Positions 2,190-6,014 of a stretch of 64,000 nucleotides of DNA are shown here, piece after piece. Each line of letters begins with the position of its first letter. Positions within the stretch are counted from its first letter, which is position 1. The notes beneath the pieces were generated by a model, which was not told where the DNA came from, did not search any database, and saw nothing but the letters and a program-made list of their open reading frames with translations. The stretch comes from Escherichia phage vB_EcoM_112: sequence record NC_024125.2, one strand, 5' to 3'. A program made the position numbers and the translations under genes.

Positions 2190-2393
2190 TTAATTCATAT
2201 TACGCTTAATAACTTCAGCAACTTCTAGTAGTTCATCTTTAGTTGCGGTGTCGGATTGAATTTTATCTCTAATATCTTTAAAGCGGTTTTTAAATTCTTC
2301 GGCTTCTCCCATATCGAAAAAGCGTTGAATGATTCTATATTCTCGATGAACTGCTTTATCAAAAAGTTCTAAATTTACTTTATATGATTTCAT
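2190..2393 (-). CDS. hypothetical 67-aa protein (position of T4 rIIA.1)
   Basis: ORF immediately upstream of rIIA, ATG verified at 2391-2393; early promoter just upstream. Confidence 0.6.
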
Positions 2394-2447
2394 TTCAATA
2401 TCCTCATTTGCCCAATTAATTATACCACATCCTTGTGGTAAAGTAAA

Positions 2448-2980
2448 CTACTGGCTCATCCATTCTTTACGAAGGTCAGCGTTATCTCCCATGAGCATTT
2501 CAAAAAGCTCTTTCCAGTTCTCAGGAAGTTTAACAACATCATATACTGGATTTTGAATCATCTCACGATATTCAGATTTTTCCAAAGAGCCAAGTCCTTT
2601 AATATAACGGATGCTATGTTTAGGTAGAGCATCTTTGGCACTCTCATATTCAGCGACTGTATAAAACCATTCTTGTTTTTTACCGACCTGAGCGATGATT
2701 ACAGGAGTTTTGACAAAACGAATTCGTCCTTGCTCAAACAATTCTGGCCAATTACTAAAAAATCCGAGCAGAGAAGGATAAATAGAACCTAATCCAATAA
2801 TCTCTTAATTATGAGGTATTTCTATAGATAGCCCGAAGGCTATCCATCGTGATCTGCGTCTGTCATAATAGCGACATTCGCATAGTTCATTGAAGAGGAT
2901 TTAATAGAACGACGAACATTGTTCTGCAATTTATATTTTTTCATATCAACGCTAGAAGAATCAATTTTTACAAATTTCAT
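2448..2980 (-). CDS. 60: DNA topoisomerase II subunit gp60, translated by programmed bypass of a 50-nt coding gap; segments 2843..2980 and 2448..2792
   Basis: 46 codons MKFVKIDSS...DADHDG end at take-off GGA (2843-2845) followed by UAG (2840-2842); reading resumes after landing GGA (2793-2795) as LGSIYPSLLGFF...; 46+114=160 aa. Confidence 0.9.
2793..2845 (-). other. gene 60 translational bypass element: take-off GGA, UAG stop, CUUCGG hairpin (2827-2844), 50-nt untranslated gap, landing GGA
   Basis: Matched GGA codons exactly 50 nt apart; stem GAUAGCC/GGCUAUC with UUCG loop spans the take-off codon; nascent peptide KKYKLQNNVRRSIKSSS precedes it. Confidence 0.85.
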
Positions 2981-3779
2981 TATACACCTCATAGAACTTT
3001 TCATCAGGAATCCAACCGCGTTTAAATTCATTAAATGCTCGGCCGAATAATTTTGAATTCACAGTTATATTATTAACTGATTTCCATTTAGCAACTCCCG
3101 TTCGTTTATAATGATCGGGGTCATATTTCGTGACGTACCATTCATATAAATTTGGTATTAATTTTACAGCCTCTGGATTTGTCGCTGATTTATTATACCA
3201 TGGTTTCGCTTTTTCAAGTTCAGCTGCTTTTGCAGTAGCAGCAACAGTATTTCCAATACCAACTAATTTTTCAGCTTTAATGCGTGGATCATTAACATGA
3301 AGACGAAAAACTTCGCCTTTTTCATTTTTAAAGCATGTCATGCCTTTAATTCCAGGAAGCTTAACACCTTTATTAACACCGCACCATTCCTTTGGGTTAA
3401 ATGATCCTTTAATTAATAAGGCGCATTTACCCGATTTAATACTTCTCATTAAAACTTTATCTTTCATAAAGTTTTTTGACCATTCAGATACTGCTCTTTG
3501 ATGGTAAATTCTAGCAATTTCATATAATTTACTAGAACGTAAATATTTTTCAGTGTTTAACATTCTATTCATCGCATATGCCATTTCACGATTACGATGA
3601 ATTTTATATAGTAGAAAATGTGCTAAAAAGTGTTCACGAAAAGTCAGTTTCACCAAATTTTCTTTATCATCAGAACCTCCCATTGATCTTGGAAGGATAT
3701 GATGAATTTCACCCTTAAATTTAGAAACGCGGGTTTTACCCCGCACTATTAAGTCATTATAGATTTTTTCGTAATTCAC
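2961..3779 (-). CDS. mobA: HNH homing endonuclease MobA, 272 aa as tracked
   Basis: HNH motif HHILPRSMGGSDDKENLVKLTFREHFLAH; sits between gene 39 and gene 60 and overlaps both; first codon is GTG with no in-frame ATG nearby. Confidence 0.75.
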   Translation of the reverse strand: MNYEKIYNDLIVRGKTRVSKFKGEIHHILPRSMGGSDDKENLVKLTFREHFLAHFLLYKIHRNREMAYAMNRMLNTEKYLRSSKLYEIARIYHQRAVSEWSKNFMKDKVLMRSIKSGKCALLIKGSFNPKEWCGVNKGVKLPGIKGMTCFKNEKGEVFRLHVNDPRIKAEKLVGIGNTVAATAKAAELEKAKPWYNKSATNPEAVKLIPNLYEWYVTKYDPDHYKRTGVAKWKSVNNITVNSKLFGRAFNEFKRGWIPDEKFYEVYNEICKN

Positions 3780-5307
3780 CTACTGTTATCCATTTACCAT
3801 TAATCTGTACTTCATCATTTTCATTTACGATAATTGTATCGCCATTTAGTTCGAAAGTAAACCACTCGCCATCTTCTTTTTCTTCAAACGCCTTTTCACC
3901 AAGAACTAGACCAGTGATTGCGCAAATATCAAATAGTTCTTTGTTTTTAAGCATATCGGCATATGACATACCCCAGCTATTAAGAACTTTACCGCGCAAT
4001 GGATAACCACCATGAAGTTCTTTATCACGAACATCAATAAGATATCCGATAGCAGAATCACCCTCAGTCAAGAACAATGTAGTATCAGCATCTTTACCAC
4101 AAAGATTCGCTTTAATATGTTTATGAACCTTAGCTTTAGAAGCCTTTTTAGCTGCTTTAGTTTCTGCTGCCTTTTCCGCCGCCAATTTACGAGCTAGTGC
4201 AGCTTCAATAATCGGCATTAAAATTGCTTCATTATTTAGAATAGCGCGTGAAATCTTTTTAGCATCAAGTTGAATATGACTACGAATTTCGCCAAATGGA
4301 GAAGTCAAACGCTCTTTAGTTTGAGAATCAAATCGCATGTTTTTCATATCACGAACAAACATAACGATAGTCAAACATTCTTTAACCCGTGCTTTAGTTA
4401 CATCAATTTTGAACTTACGTTTGATTTGTGGAATAAGGTCTTCACAAATATCATCCATAACACAGTCAATGTGATGGCCACCATTCTTAGTATGAATGTT
4501 ATTCACATAAGTTAATTGACGAAAACCATCCGGTGAACGACCAACTGCAATAGAACAATTTTCTTGTTCTTGAACGATAGCATGCTCATCATATTGGCGT
4601 GCATATTTCTTAAAATTACCCTGAACCTTTTTACCATTAAAGGTAAATTGAATATCAGGATAAACAACAGCAAGTGTCTGGAGACGATCTAGTGTAATGT
4701 CAAGATAAACTTGGGACAGCTCATTAGTTTCAAATGACATAAAATCAGGAATGAAAGTAACGCGAGTTCCTTTCCATTTTCCAGGAATATCTTCCCATGA
4801 TTTATTTTCCATGCCATTTGAACAACGAACTACAATATTATTTTGACCATCACCAGTTTCACCAACAAACATCACAGAAAAAATGTTAGTTAAACTAGAA
4901 CCAACACCGTTCATACCGCCAGTGACGCGTTCTTTATCATCACCGAAGTTACCACCTGCTTTTGGAATAGTCCATGCAGCAACAGGACCAGGAATTTCTT
5001 CACCAGTAGGTGTTTTAACCATAGCCTGTGGAATACCACGACCGTTATCTTCAACTGTTACCTGATTATTTTTAATAGTAACATTAATTTTATTTGCGAA
5101 TTTAAACTTAGTACGAATACCTTCATCTACTGAGTTATCGATAATTTCATCAATAAGCTTAACAAGACCAGGTACATACTGAACACTTTCCCATTTACCA
5201 AACAGAAAGCGCTCATGCATTTCATTAGCAGAAGAGCCAATATACATGCCGCTACGCTTTTTGATATGTTCAATATCGCTCAGAATTTTAATTTCATTCT
5301 TAATCAT
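3757..5307 (-). CDS. 39: DNA topoisomerase II large (ATPase, GyrB-like) subunit gp39, 516 aa
   Basis: 516 aa from ATG at 5305-5307 (tracked start 5310 is GTG); GHKL ATPase motifs (EIIDNSVDE, GLVKLIDE); synteny. Confidence 0.9.
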   Translation of the reverse strand: MIKNEIKILSDIEHIKKRSGMYIGSSANEMHERFLFGKWESVQYVPGLVKLIDEIIDNSVDEGIRTKFKFANKINVTIKNNQVTVEDNGRGIPQAMVKTPTGEEIPGPVAAWTIPKAGGNFGDDKERVTGGMNGVGSSLTNIFSVMFVGETGDGQNNIVVRCSNGMENKSWEDIPGKWKGTRVTFIPDFMSFETNELSQVYLDITLDRLQTLAVVYPDIQFTFNGKKVQGNFKKYARQYDEHAIVQEQENCSIAVGRSPDGFRQLTYVNNIHTKNGGHHIDCVMDDICEDLIPQIKRKFKIDVTKARVKECLTIVMFVRDMKNMRFDSQTKERLTSPFGEIRSHIQLDAKKISRAILNNEAILMPIIEAALARKLAAEKAAETKAAKKASKAKVHKHIKANLCGKDADTTLFLTEGDSAIGYLIDVRDKELHGGYPLRGKVLNSWGMSYADMLKNKELFDICAITGLVLGEKAFEEKEDGEWFTFELNGDTIIVNENDEVQINGKWITVGELRKNL

Positions 5308-5359
5308 CACTTATCCTCGTTTGGTTTCGGGAATATTATACTCCAATAATCATAAAGCT

Positions 5360-5377
5360 AAAGGCCCGAAGGCCTTT
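5360..5377 (-). terminator. CUUCGG tetraloop hairpin immediately after the stop of the lipoprotein ORF
   Basis: Plus strand AAAGGCC-CGAA-GGCCTTT; transcript loop UUCG; overlaps stop at 5377-5379. Confidence 0.5.
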
Positions 5378-5642: not shown

Positions 5643-6014
5643 TCACTTAAATTTAATGGCTTGAAGAAGACTAATAACTCTCAAGCGACTTCTTTCATCT
5701 TTAACTGTAAAAGAAAGAGGGTCACCAGACTTCATAGTAATAGTGCATTCAAAATCAAAATCTTCGGAAACTTCTTTGAAGAAGTCAAATTCTTCATCAT
5801 AAATTAAAACTTCACTCCGAAGACTGTGAAGAATTTTTCCGTCATTTCCAGATGCTGTACTAATCATTGTAACATTATTACCTTTCATATCTTCAACGAT
5901 AAATTCGCTTGTAGATATTACAGCATTAATAGAACCATTCCTATAAATAGCAGAAAATAGATATTTCTTTTCTTCACCTTCGCGAATGCGATATTTCTTA
6001 CCGATTTTAAACAT
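5643..6014 (-). CDS. hypothetical protein, 123 aa
   Basis: ATG verified at 6012-6014; no motif recognised. Confidence 0.6.
   Translation of the reverse strand: MFKIGKKYRIREGEEKKYLFSAIYRNGSINAVISTSEFIVEDMKGNNVTMISTASGNDGKILHSLRSEVLIYDEEFDFFKEVSEDFDFECTITMKSGDPLSFTVKDERSRLRVISLLQAIKFK

Follow-up and report, generated by a model that had tools for sequence, protein, structure and literature searches.

A T4-like gene 60 with a 50-nucleotide bypass gap and a MobA element in Escherichia phage vB_EcoM_112

The bypass in gene 60 is the founding example of a ribosome that skips a long mRNA stretch while keeping its peptide. In Escherichia phage vB_EcoM_112 (NC_024125.2), the gene 60 locus raises the question of how one protein could be made from a reading frame that meets a stop codon and resumes further downstream in another frame. 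We analysed a window of 64,000 nt, the whole stretch of DNA considered here, for the anatomy of this gene, its identity with T4, the alignment of the joined protein to homologues that are not split, the stability and covariation of the take-off hairpin, and the boundaries of the mobile element that surrounds it. The results strongly suggest, with a probability of roughly 95%, that positions 2448-2980 of the minus strand are a T4-like gene 60 whose 50-nt non-coding gap would be hopped by the ribosome, yielding a single 160-aa gp60.

Anatomy of the interrupted gene 60

Read directly from the sequence, gene 60 lies on the minus strand and starts with ATG at 2980-2978. Its first coding segment (codons 1-46, 2843-2980, MKFVKIDSSSVDMKKYKLQNNVRRSIKSSSMNYANVAIMTDADHDG) is encoded by the MobA element and comprises an N-terminal extension plus homR, which replaces the Toprim motif. 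This segment ends in GAU GGA, and the take-off codon GGA (Gly46, 2843-2845) is followed directly by a UAG stop (2840-2842). The untranslated gap of 50 nt (UAGCCUUCGGGCUAUCUAUAGAAAUACCUCAUAAUUAAGAGAUUAUUGGA, 2793-2842) extends from this UAG through the landing codon, a second GGA at 2793-2795, such that the first bases of the two GGA codons are 50 nt apart. The second segment (2448-2792, codons 47-160 plus stop, LGSIYPSLL...KEWMSQ) opens at UUA (2792), and this frame stays open for 114 codons up to the stop at 2450-2448. A Shine-Dalgarno-like GAG (2802-2804) is located 6 nt 5' of the landing codon, separated from it by the A/U-rich AUUAUU, and the nascent-peptide signal KKYKLQNNVRRSIKSSS occupies residues 14-30 (2891-2941). 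The sequence thus agrees with an earlier sequence-only reading, which had the gp60 frame stopping at UAG after the GGA at 2843-2845, resuming 50 nt downstream after the GGA at 2793-2795, and carrying a nascent-peptide signal ahead of take-off; residues 1-46 are moreover identical to those of T4 gp60. The span which that reading assigned to the feature, 2793-2980, does hold the elements it named, each in its place, but it stops short of 2448-2792, the second half of gene 60, and does not take in the full MobA element (2784-3889).

By itself, such an arrangement proves nothing. The layout of an open reading frame, a stop, the same codon 10-80 nt downstream and a long open frame occurs 71 times in the window, so matched codons of this kind are common by chance. 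We regard the bypass feature as non-accidental because of three further properties: a hairpin is present at the take-off site, the joined protein lines up with unsplit homologues without a gap, and the sequence matches the annotated bypass region of T4 at every base.

Could the two segments simply be translated separately, as a 46-aa peptide that ends at UAG and a second, C-terminal piece of the topoisomerase with its own initiation inside or after the gap? Many automatic annotations of relatives (BF15, GRNsp7, Pm5461, S16) do list two CDSs, the GAG lies inside the gap upstream of the second frame, and in T4 roughly half of the ribosomes leave the bypass incomplete according to the literature. 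The second frame, however, has just 4 open codons before UUA, none of them ATG, GTG or TTG, and the GAG is only 0-3 nt from the sole AUU codons there, too near for initiation. The first canonical start in this frame, TTG at 2741, would remove the invariant LGSIYPSLLGFF segment, and separate products would cut the Toprim DxDxDG motif off from the rest of its domain. Published protein sequencing and mass spectrometry found the joined product for the identical T4 sequence, and we consider independent initiation very improbable. We also considered a second in-frame GGA (2765-2763), 80 nt from take-off, as an alternative landing site and rejected it; published mass spectrometry of T4, with the identical sequence, gave only the 50-nt landing product.

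Identity with T4 and the joined protein

Alignment to T4 gene 60, which had been proposed as a check, gave 100% identity to T4/T4T over 2719-3274, and the same 50 nt are annotated there as 'non-coding translational bypass region' (misc_feature). It covers the whole first coding segment with its nascent-peptide signal, both the 5' stem-loop and the take-off hairpin, and the gap together with its GAG and landing codon, which bears out the earlier view that the classic T4 gene 60 recoding site (Huang et al. 1988; Weiss et al. 1990; Samatova 2014; Agirrezabala 2017, PDB 5np6) is intact here. The protein product is identical as well: the hop-joined 160-aa gp60 is 100% identical to T4 gp60 in PDB 8yo3, the solved T4 topoisomerase II, and the product of codons 1-46 is 100% identical to chain C of PDB 5np6, a ribosome complex at take-off in which that chain is the 46-aa nascent peptide. 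The junction of the joined protein reads ...MTDADHDG-LGSIYPSLLGFFSNWPELFEQGR, and when the protein was aligned to the unsplit T6 gp39 (8ylu) and RB14 60plus39, no indel was observed across the join of DADHDG and LGSIYPSLL. The second coding segment matches Pfam TOPRIM_C as well as PHROG 7229 and 543. Compared with T4, it carries four base changes, all synonymous, and such synonymous-only divergence, leaving the protein 100% identical, shows purifying selection on the second frame.

These data also bear on whether the gene might be decaying or misassembled, with a random 50-nt insertion inactivating gene 60. An in-frame stop together with a frame change within an essential gene is the usual sign of a pseudogene or a sequencing error. 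Against this, the same 50 nt recur in some 40 Tequatrovirus records sequenced independently of one another (27 of them at 100% identity, the others 1-2 bases off), the functional features are retained in diverged cassettes, and the second frame differs from T4 by synonymous changes only. An inactivating insertion or artefact is therefore extremely improbable. The 50-nt gap is missing from RB14, a phage without the insert.

Because the sequence is identical to that of T4, we infer that the hop takes place in vB_EcoM_112 too; the hop itself, its efficiency of roughly 50% and the roles of the peptide, the hairpin and the GAG were established experimentally in earlier work on T4, whose sequence is the same (PMC5462505, PMC6551183, PMC3014915, bioRxiv 10.1101/2022.08.31.505936). 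In the proposed mechanism, the ribosome would stall after 46 codons, with peptidyl-tRNA-Gly on GGA and the A site occupied by UAG. Residues about 14-46 of the nascent peptide would hold the exit tunnel, and the C(UUCG)G hairpin would form in the A site and exclude release factor 1. Codon-anticodon pairing would be lost and the ribosome would slide about 50 nt with the peptidyl-tRNA staying in the P site and the peptide unreleased, until decoding restarts at UUA to give the single 160-aa gp60. Action of the nascent-peptide signal in the exit tunnel has been described (PMC5462505), and in T4-type bypass the signal includes Y16, Q19, V22, R24 and T40 according to the literature. A role in anti-SD pairing has been assigned to the GAG near the landing codon in the T4 literature, and a joined polypeptide from gap-retaining mRNA has been demonstrated experimentally for the identical T4 sequence (PMC5462505, PMC3014915).

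RNA structures and diverged cassettes

The earlier reading placed the take-off codon in a CUUCGG tetraloop hairpin at 2827-2844, and a hairpin was found exactly there. The take-off stem-loop (2824-2847) has a 10-bp stem and a UUCG tetraloop at 2837-2834, with the take-off codon in its 5' arm and the stable C(UUCG)G tetraloop as its cap. Its 7-bp core (2844-2827), in which GAUAGCC pairs with GGCUAUC, folds with -9.9 kcal/mol (z -5.8), and none of 200 shuffles was as good; the 28-nt fold at 2822-2849, which forms the 10-bp stem, reaches -14.7 kcal/mol (z -4.1). Across 7 distinct cassettes, 97% of the cells are paired and half of the pairs (5/10) are altered on both sides. With the register slid as a control, both-side changes numbered 0 at -3 to +1 and 1 each at +2 and +3. 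This pattern indicates that pairing of the take-off hairpin is maintained through compensatory changes across cassettes. The same hairpin was considered as an intrinsic terminator and rejected, as no T-run follows it and the terminator scan did not flag it.

Upstream of the take-off hairpin, a 5' stem-loop is predicted by folding at 2855-2882 (UGCG..GUCGC, 6 nt, GACAG..CGCA), with -9.3 kcal/mol and z -2.7; 3 of 200 shuffles were equally good. In the T4 literature, forward sliding is driven by this stem-loop once it exits the ribosome, and it is reportedly not conserved beyond the E. coli clade (bioRxiv 10.1101/2022.08.31.505936). A hairpin downstream of the landing site has likewise been assigned a role there, as a forward slippage barrier. 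The candidate helix at 2731-2770, included here solely for this literature role, is predicted but is no more stable than shuffles (z -0.6), and the latter holds for a small hairpin within the 50-nt gap (z -0.2).

A structural search also addresses removal of the gap at the RNA level, by a tiny intron or by processing, so that a continuous frame would be read. An Rfam search with the threshold set at E<=1 for 2300-3300, and at the gathering score for the window as a whole, returned no intron or other RNA family; Rfam has no curated family for the bypass element. Other genes of T4-type phages do contain self-splicing group I introns, and a direct GGA repeat flanks the gap. Yet 50 nt is far smaller than any self-splicing intron, and the homologous gaps of 17-52 nt have no common intron-like core. 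In addition, the gap is transcribed and retained in the translated mRNA, and unspliced mRNA yields the bypass product in vitro according to the literature. We thus assign hardly any probability to RNA-level removal, and a hop across a retained gap is the preferred reading.

To place the element among its relatives, we ran tblastn with the 46-aa segment, which gave matches in 72 of 50,697 phage records from six host groups. From these homologues, 11 distinct cassettes were extracted for the comparison of codons and gaps, and 8 bypass lineages were aligned for the nascent peptide. In all 11 cassettes the take-off and landing codons are synonymous and differ at most at the wobble base; the pairs seen are GGA/GGA, GGG/GGA, GGU/GGC, GGU/GGU, GAU/GAC and GAC/GAC, each decoded by one tRNA (bioRxiv 10.1101/2022.08.31.505936). 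The codon after take-off is UAG or the rare AGG in all homologous cassettes examined. A GAG (AAG in Thanatos-1) lies 5-7 nt before the landing codon in the 10 long-gap cassettes, and the Aes012 cassette has GGG 8 nt upstream of the landing codon instead. Within the nascent peptide, Y16 and Q19 are invariant in all 8 lineages, V22 is retained in all but one of them, and position 24 is R throughout.

The cassettes of Bragavirus (Proteus), Gelderlandvirus (S16), Lazarusvirus (Acinetobacter), Thanatos-1 (Shewanella) and Tulanevirus (Aeromonas) share with the present one the same gene, the same insertion point (Toprim DxDxD(G)) and the 39-HNH-60 order. In all of them, the take-off and landing codons match, the take-off codon precedes UAG or a rare codon, the hairpin is stable and capped by a tetraloop, and Y16, Q19 and R24 are conserved. 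They differ in their codon pairs (GGG/GGA, GGU/GGC, GAU/GAC, GAC/GAC), in gaps of 17-52 nt and, for some, in loops of GCAA or UUAG, and their N-terminal extension is 52-59% identical to that of T4. The diverged copies come from phages of Proteus, Salmonella, Acinetobacter, Shewanella and Aeromonas. Exact-pattern scans of IMG/VR with GAYGGNTAGCCTTCGGGCTA and with the Toprim motif plus TAG (ATGACNGAYGCNGAYNNNGAYGGNTAG) returned one contig each.

The gap lengths further allow conventional recoding to be weighed, in which UAG readthrough, a single +1/-1 frameshift or both would lead to translation of the gap. Readthrough could keep the frame in the Proteus phage (51 nt) and S16 (48 nt) homologues, where the gap is a multiple of 3. 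The S16 gap, however, contains two in-frame stops. In the present gap, 50 nt amount to a net shift of +2 and all three frames are closed (two UAG in frame 0, and a UAA in each of frames 1 and 2). A translated gap would add about 16 residues right after DxDxDG, where every unsplit homologue has 0. The cassette gaps, at 17-52 nt, fall in every frame class, and therefore only a frame-independent hop fits. Conventional recoding is accordingly a vanishingly unlikely account of this locus.

Outside phages, the mitochondrial 'byps' of the yeast Magnusiomyces capitatus likewise combine efficient programmed bypass (27-55-nt inserts), matched codons, a non-decodable A-site codon and mobile-element behaviour. 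In contrast to the gene 60 cassette, they are of unrelated sequence, act in mitochondrial translation, number dozens of inserts per genome, and have no homing endonuclease and no known nascent-peptide signal.

The MobA element, its genomic setting and its significance

Alignment with the uninterrupted RB14 gene set the boundaries of the whole MobA mobile element at 2784-3889 on the minus strand. Its 1106 nt comprise the gp39 C-terminal extension, mobA, the gp60 N-terminal extension, homR, the bypass gap and 9 nt more, and both this size and the 9-nt 3' extension (element-derived homR) agree with the published mobile cassette. The element is inserted after ...GLVLGEKA of the topoisomerase large subunit. 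Gene 39 (3757-5307, minus strand) encodes 516 aa that make up the N-terminal portion of the topoisomerase II large subunit; the final 43 aa, encoded downward from 3889, are contributed by the element as a C-terminal extension. The mobA gene (2961-3779, minus strand) is intact and predicted to encode an HNH homing endonuclease of 272 aa; it overlaps both neighbours, gene 39 at the latter's end and gene 60 at its start. Its product matches PHROG 655 'homing endonuclease' (E 2.5e-57) and is identical to the annotated T4T MobA at 271 of 272 residues; the Pfam HNH score of 20.1 bits is just under the gathering score of 21.4. The predicted function is thus assigned from PHROG 655 and identity with T4T MobA, not from Pfam HNH. 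As in T4T, mobA is here an intact ORF, in contrast to the 'pseudogene' of the old T4 reference record, a label due to 11 extra single bases in the mobA region of that reference.

In structure, the element is like the MobA bypass mobile cassette of clade 1, found in E. coli phages (Bonocora et al. 2011 PNAS; Manning & Atkins 2022 bioRxiv 10.1101/2022.08.31.505936). It shares with that clade the 43-aa C-terminal extension, the out-of-frame overlapping 272-aa HNH gene, the 46-aa N-terminal extension with homR, the 50-nt gap and the 9 nt more of homR, and on these features we class it as one more clade 1 copy. The gap does not belong to the topoisomerase as such; it is the 3' end of a 1.1-kb MobA element that split an ancestral gene 39 into genes 39 and 60, and the gap and the recoded homR would together disrupt MobA's own target site. 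Compared with the RB14 target region, homR in vB_EcoM_112 shows 77% identity, and the gap interrupts it. According to Bonocora et al. 2011, as cited elsewhere, MobA nicks the insert-less allele, and the gap and homR are said to shield the carrier genome. The homing endonucleases borne by group I introns and inteins of T-even phages are comparable, being likewise selfish genes in an essential gene whose product is restored and whose own target is destroyed. In gene 60, by contrast, restoration would occur during translation, by the hop and two-subunit assembly, rather than by RNA or protein splicing, and no intron model matches.

The genome as a whole is that of a Tequatrovirus other than T4 itself, with a backbone about 95-97% identical to T4. 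Its best 25-kb matches are only 94-96% identical. The MobA element, on the other hand, is 99.73% identical to that of T4T (3 base differences), and the ~600 nt downstream of it are 99.2% identical to T4, compared with 95.8% for the neighbouring host portion of gene 39 and 97.3% for rIIA. In addition, the first 9 kb of T4T, a region that contains 39.1 and 39.2, lack the RB32ORF005c-like gene present here at 5643-6014. Because the element and its downstream flank are far closer to T4 than are the gene 39 body and rIIA, and because this backbone gene is absent from the start of T4T, the cassette may record recent natural homing, that is, MobA-driven transfer of the split gene and its gap into a Tequatrovirus other than T4, leaving a co-conversion tract on one side; we regard the chances for and against this as evenly balanced.

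As the sequence-only reading held, the recoding event is established rather than new, as the T4 literature (since 1988) and the preprint of Manning & Atkins (2022) attest. The element, the homologous copies in further phage genera and the re-derived rules of conservation have all been published already and add no new biology. The locus is of practical use for annotation. Gene callers routinely divide gene 60 into two CDSs labelled "hypothetical" or "topoisomerase subunit", as in BF15, GRNsp7, G50, S16 and Proteus phages, and the correct annotation is one joined CDS plus the MobA mobile element. The gene 60 bypass is still a main experimental system for ribosome sliding, nascent-peptide control and A-site RNA structures. 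If the cassette was indeed acquired by homing, vB_EcoM_112 would provide a field example of a mobility known from laboratory crosses.

Gene 60 in the window and its identity with T4

On direct reading of the minus strand, gene 60 starts at ATG 2980-2978 and encodes MKFVKIDSSSVDMKKYKLQNNVRRSIKSSSMNYANVAIMTDADHDG, ending with the take-off codon GGA (2845-2843) followed by UAG (2842-2840). A second GGA, the landing codon, is located at 2795-2793, exactly 50 nt from the first (first base to first base), and a resumed frame of 114 codons (LGSIYPSLLGFFSNWPELFEQGR...KEWMSQ) runs from UUA at 2792 to the stop at 2450-2448. The 50-nt gap reads UAGCCUUCGGGCUAUCUAUAGAAAUACCUCAUAAUUAAGAGAUUAUUGGA, and residues 14-30 of the first segment (2941-2891) form the nascent peptide KKYKLQNNVRRSIKSSS. 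The sequence-only reading had proposed a ribosome hop in gene 60, and its coordinates are all right. A further GGA at 2763-2765 (minus strand), 80 nt from take-off, is in frame with the resumed ORF. Its use would remove 10 residues. We rejected it as a landing site, since published mass spectrometry on the identical T4 sequence found the 50-nt landing product as the sole product.

We counted how often such a layout occurs in the window, defined as a stop closing an open frame of 40 or more codons, recurrence of the preceding codon 10-80 nt downstream, and then 100 or more codons of open frame. As many as 71 codon pairs fit, and matched GGA codons alone thus prove nothing. The decisive evidence for bypass lies beyond the bare layout, in the identity with T4, the protein test and the comparative test.

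Megablast of 2440-3790 returned T4 and close relatives at 98.5-99.6% identity, and base-by-base comparison gave zero differences from T4 or T4T across 2719-3274, which covers the first coding segment in full together with both upstream hairpins, the gap and the landing site. Both T4 and T4T records label the matching 50 nt "non-coding translational bypass region in mRNA" and enter gene 60 as a joined CDS of two parts. The bypass is established knowledge, as the sequence-only reading had said, and its occurrence here is already known. A sensitive blastn search with the gap and 10-nt flanks found 27 records at 100% and 13 others with one or two differences. That about 40 independent genomes conserve the gap, and that the second frame has changed only synonymously, excludes a pseudogene or sequencing artefact.

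Joining the frames at the GGA pair yields a 160-aa protein with 100% identity to the gp60 part of T4 topoisomerase II (PDB 8yo3, E 9e-105). It aligns gap-free with the naturally unsplit gp39 of T6 (8ylu) across ...MTDADHDG/LGSIYPSLL..., and is likewise gap-free and colinear with the unsplit RB14 homologue "60plus39". Residues 1-46 are chain C of 5np6, a cryo-EM structure of a ribosome stalled at the gene 60 take-off site (PMC5462505; see also PMC11461880). Pfam and PHROGs assign the joined protein to the Toprim C-terminal region of type IIA topoisomerases. The gap falls directly after the DxDxDG metal-binding motif; translating it would add residues absent from every homologue.

RNA elements and other routes across the gap

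The core take-off hairpin, GAUAGCC-UUCG-GGCUAUC (2844-2827), folds at -9.9 kcal/mol, against -1.65 ± 1.42 kcal/mol for dinucleotide shuffles (z -5.8; none of 200 as stable). In context, its stem extends to 10 bp (2847-2824), and the 28-nt fold at 2822-2849 reaches -14.7 kcal/mol (z -4.1). The upstream hairpin at 2882-2855, which corresponds to the published 5' stem-loop, is moderately above chance (-9.3 kcal/mol, z -2.7). Neither the predicted hairpin downstream of landing (2770-2731) nor a small hairpin within the gap was better than shuffles, and Rfam holds no family matching the gene 60 bypass RNA. A role of the take-off hairpin as a terminator was rejected, with no T-run on its 3' side and no report from the terminator scan.

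Both strands of window 1-64000 together contain 30 copies of CTTCGG, the hexamer of the C(UUCG)G tetraloop motif (e.g. 2833-2838, 4943-4948 and 5366-5371). Shuffles gave 12.7 ± 3.8 and none reached 30; the take-off hairpin therefore uses a generally enriched motif. T4-type phages are known for such an excess of CTTCGG.

Could the ribosome reach the second frame without hopping? Readthrough or a single frameshift is excluded, since stops are present in each of the three frames of the gap and the shift needed is +2. Removal of the gap by RNA splicing is unsupported: no intron model matches, the gap is just 50 nt, and the literature shows that gap-containing mRNA is translated (PMC5462505, PMC3014915). 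Over the whole 64 kb, no Rfam family reached the gathering score, hence no group I intron, and no tRNA or tmRNA genes were found. Separate initiation of the second frame is implausible. Ahead of UUA this frame has only four open codons, GAG AUU AUU GGA, with no ATG, GTG or TTG among them; there is no start codon before TTG 2741, the use of which would delete invariant residues. The GAG at 2804-2802, 6 nt 5' of the landing GGA, is too close to the only AUU codons to serve such a start.

Bypass cassettes in other phages

Searching with the 46-aa segment by tblastn matched 72 of 50,697 phage records, from Escherichia/Shigella/Salmonella, Proteus, Acinetobacter, Aeromonas and Shewanella phages, and the sensitive blastn search showed gaps about 80% identical in Proteus and Salmonella S16-type phages. 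We chose representatives among the matching phages and extracted their cassettes, all of which keep the order gene 39 - HNH endonuclease - gene 60. Take-off and landing codons are GGA/GGA in the T4 type (gap 50 nt) and GRNsp7 (51 nt), GGG/GGA in Proteus phages (51 nt), GGU/GGC in S16 (48 nt) and Stupor (42 nt), GGU/GGU in Thanatos-1 (52 nt), GAU/GAC in fHyAci03 (43 nt) and GAC/GAC in Aes012 (17 nt). Every pair is synonymous, differing at most at the wobble base, and each could be read by one tRNA. UAG follows the take-off codon in all but Stupor, which has the rare AGG instead. The gap lengths represent each of the three frame classes, a spread that can be explained only by a hop independent of frame.

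Among seven distinct take-off hairpins, 97% of cells pair and 5 of 10 pairs show double-sided changes; for example, the third base of the take-off codon and its partner occur as A-U, G-C and U-A. As a control, sliding the register by -3 to +1 columns left no double-sided pairs and by +2 or +3 one each; in each of the six slid registers, pairing dropped to 21-40%. Across 8 lineages, the nascent peptide always has Y16, Q19 and an R at residue 24, and 7 of the 8 keep V22. The same clades and codon pairs were described by Manning & Atkins (bioRxiv 10.1101/2022.08.31.505936), who give GGG/GGA for Proteus, GGU/GGC for both S16 and Stupor and GAU/GAC for Acinetobacter phages, and who also report the covarying hairpin, the mini-SD and the conserved residues of the peptide. 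Our comparison is an independent reproduction of published work and no discovery.

The cassette of Salmonella phage GRNsp7 (1501-1574) is of T4 type. Its A/U spacer, from GAG to the landing GGA, is longer by a single T, and this accounts for the 51-nt gap and 7-nt GAG spacing. The extra T is either a natural variant tolerating the changed spacing or a homopolymer sequencing error.

Taken together, T4 identity, colinearity of the joined protein, the hairpin and the cassette comparison confirm what was first noticed from the sequence and support its reading as a gene 60 bypass. Judged at the sequence level, this T4 relative has the classic translational bypass of T4 gene 60, borne on an intact MobA element.

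The MobA element, its background and gene 60 annotation

Alignment with the uninterrupted RB14 gene delimits the MobA homing-endonuclease insert to 3889-2784 (1106 nt). Its 5' end encodes a 43-aa C-terminal extension of gp39 (FEEKEDGEW...RKNL). Then comes mobA (3779-2961, minus strand; 272 aa; PHROG 655 "homing endonuclease", E 2.5e-57), which overlaps both neighbouring genes out of frame. The unique 30-aa N-terminus of gp60 follows, and the 43-nt homR (2889-2847; 77% identity to RB14) replaces the deleted Toprim segment. The 50-nt gap comes next, followed by nine recoded bases, TTA GGT TCT for TTA GGA AGC in RB14. The element is like published clade 1 elements in size and layout. As cited in other papers, Bonocora et al. 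2011 describe nicking of the insert-less allele by MobA and protection of the carrier genome by the gap.

MobA is intact here, with one residue different from that of T4T. Compared with the window, T4T and BF15, the T4 reference NC_000866.4 has 11 additional single bases in mobA, mostly G, corresponding to window 3440-3647. They split the ORF into 'mobA pseudogene' and '60.1' and account for the pseudogene label; they may have arisen by mutation in a laboratory strain or as errors of early sequencing.

The best matches in the phage collection over 25 kb reach only 94-96% identity. A 123-aa RB32ORF005c-like ORF (5643-6014, minus strand), between 39.1 and the next gene, is identical to RB14's at 113 of 123 residues and without a match in T4T's first 9 kb, where 39.1 and 39.2 lie. 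Both observations indicate that the window comes from a mosaic Tequatrovirus rather than T4. Identity to T4T is 99.73% in the MobA element (2784-3889; 3 differences in 1106 nt) and 99.2% downstream of it to rIIA.1, compared with 95.8% in the host part of gene 39 (3890-5310) and 97.3% in rIIA (2-2179). This step looks like a homing or co-conversion tract, and the identity pattern together with the RB32ORF005c-like gene would be consistent with the element having spread recently between Tequatroviruses, which is the sole mildly new point of our analysis.

In the deposited annotations of BF15, Pm5461, S16, SJ_PmiM, GRNsp7 and G50, gene 60 appears as two unrelated CDSs or its second CDS begins inside the gap, and that of G50 even marks a 'frameshift'. 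Automatic pipelines systematically mis-annotate the gene 60 bypass. The value of the present result lies in correct annotation, with gene 60 as one joined CDS and not two fragments.
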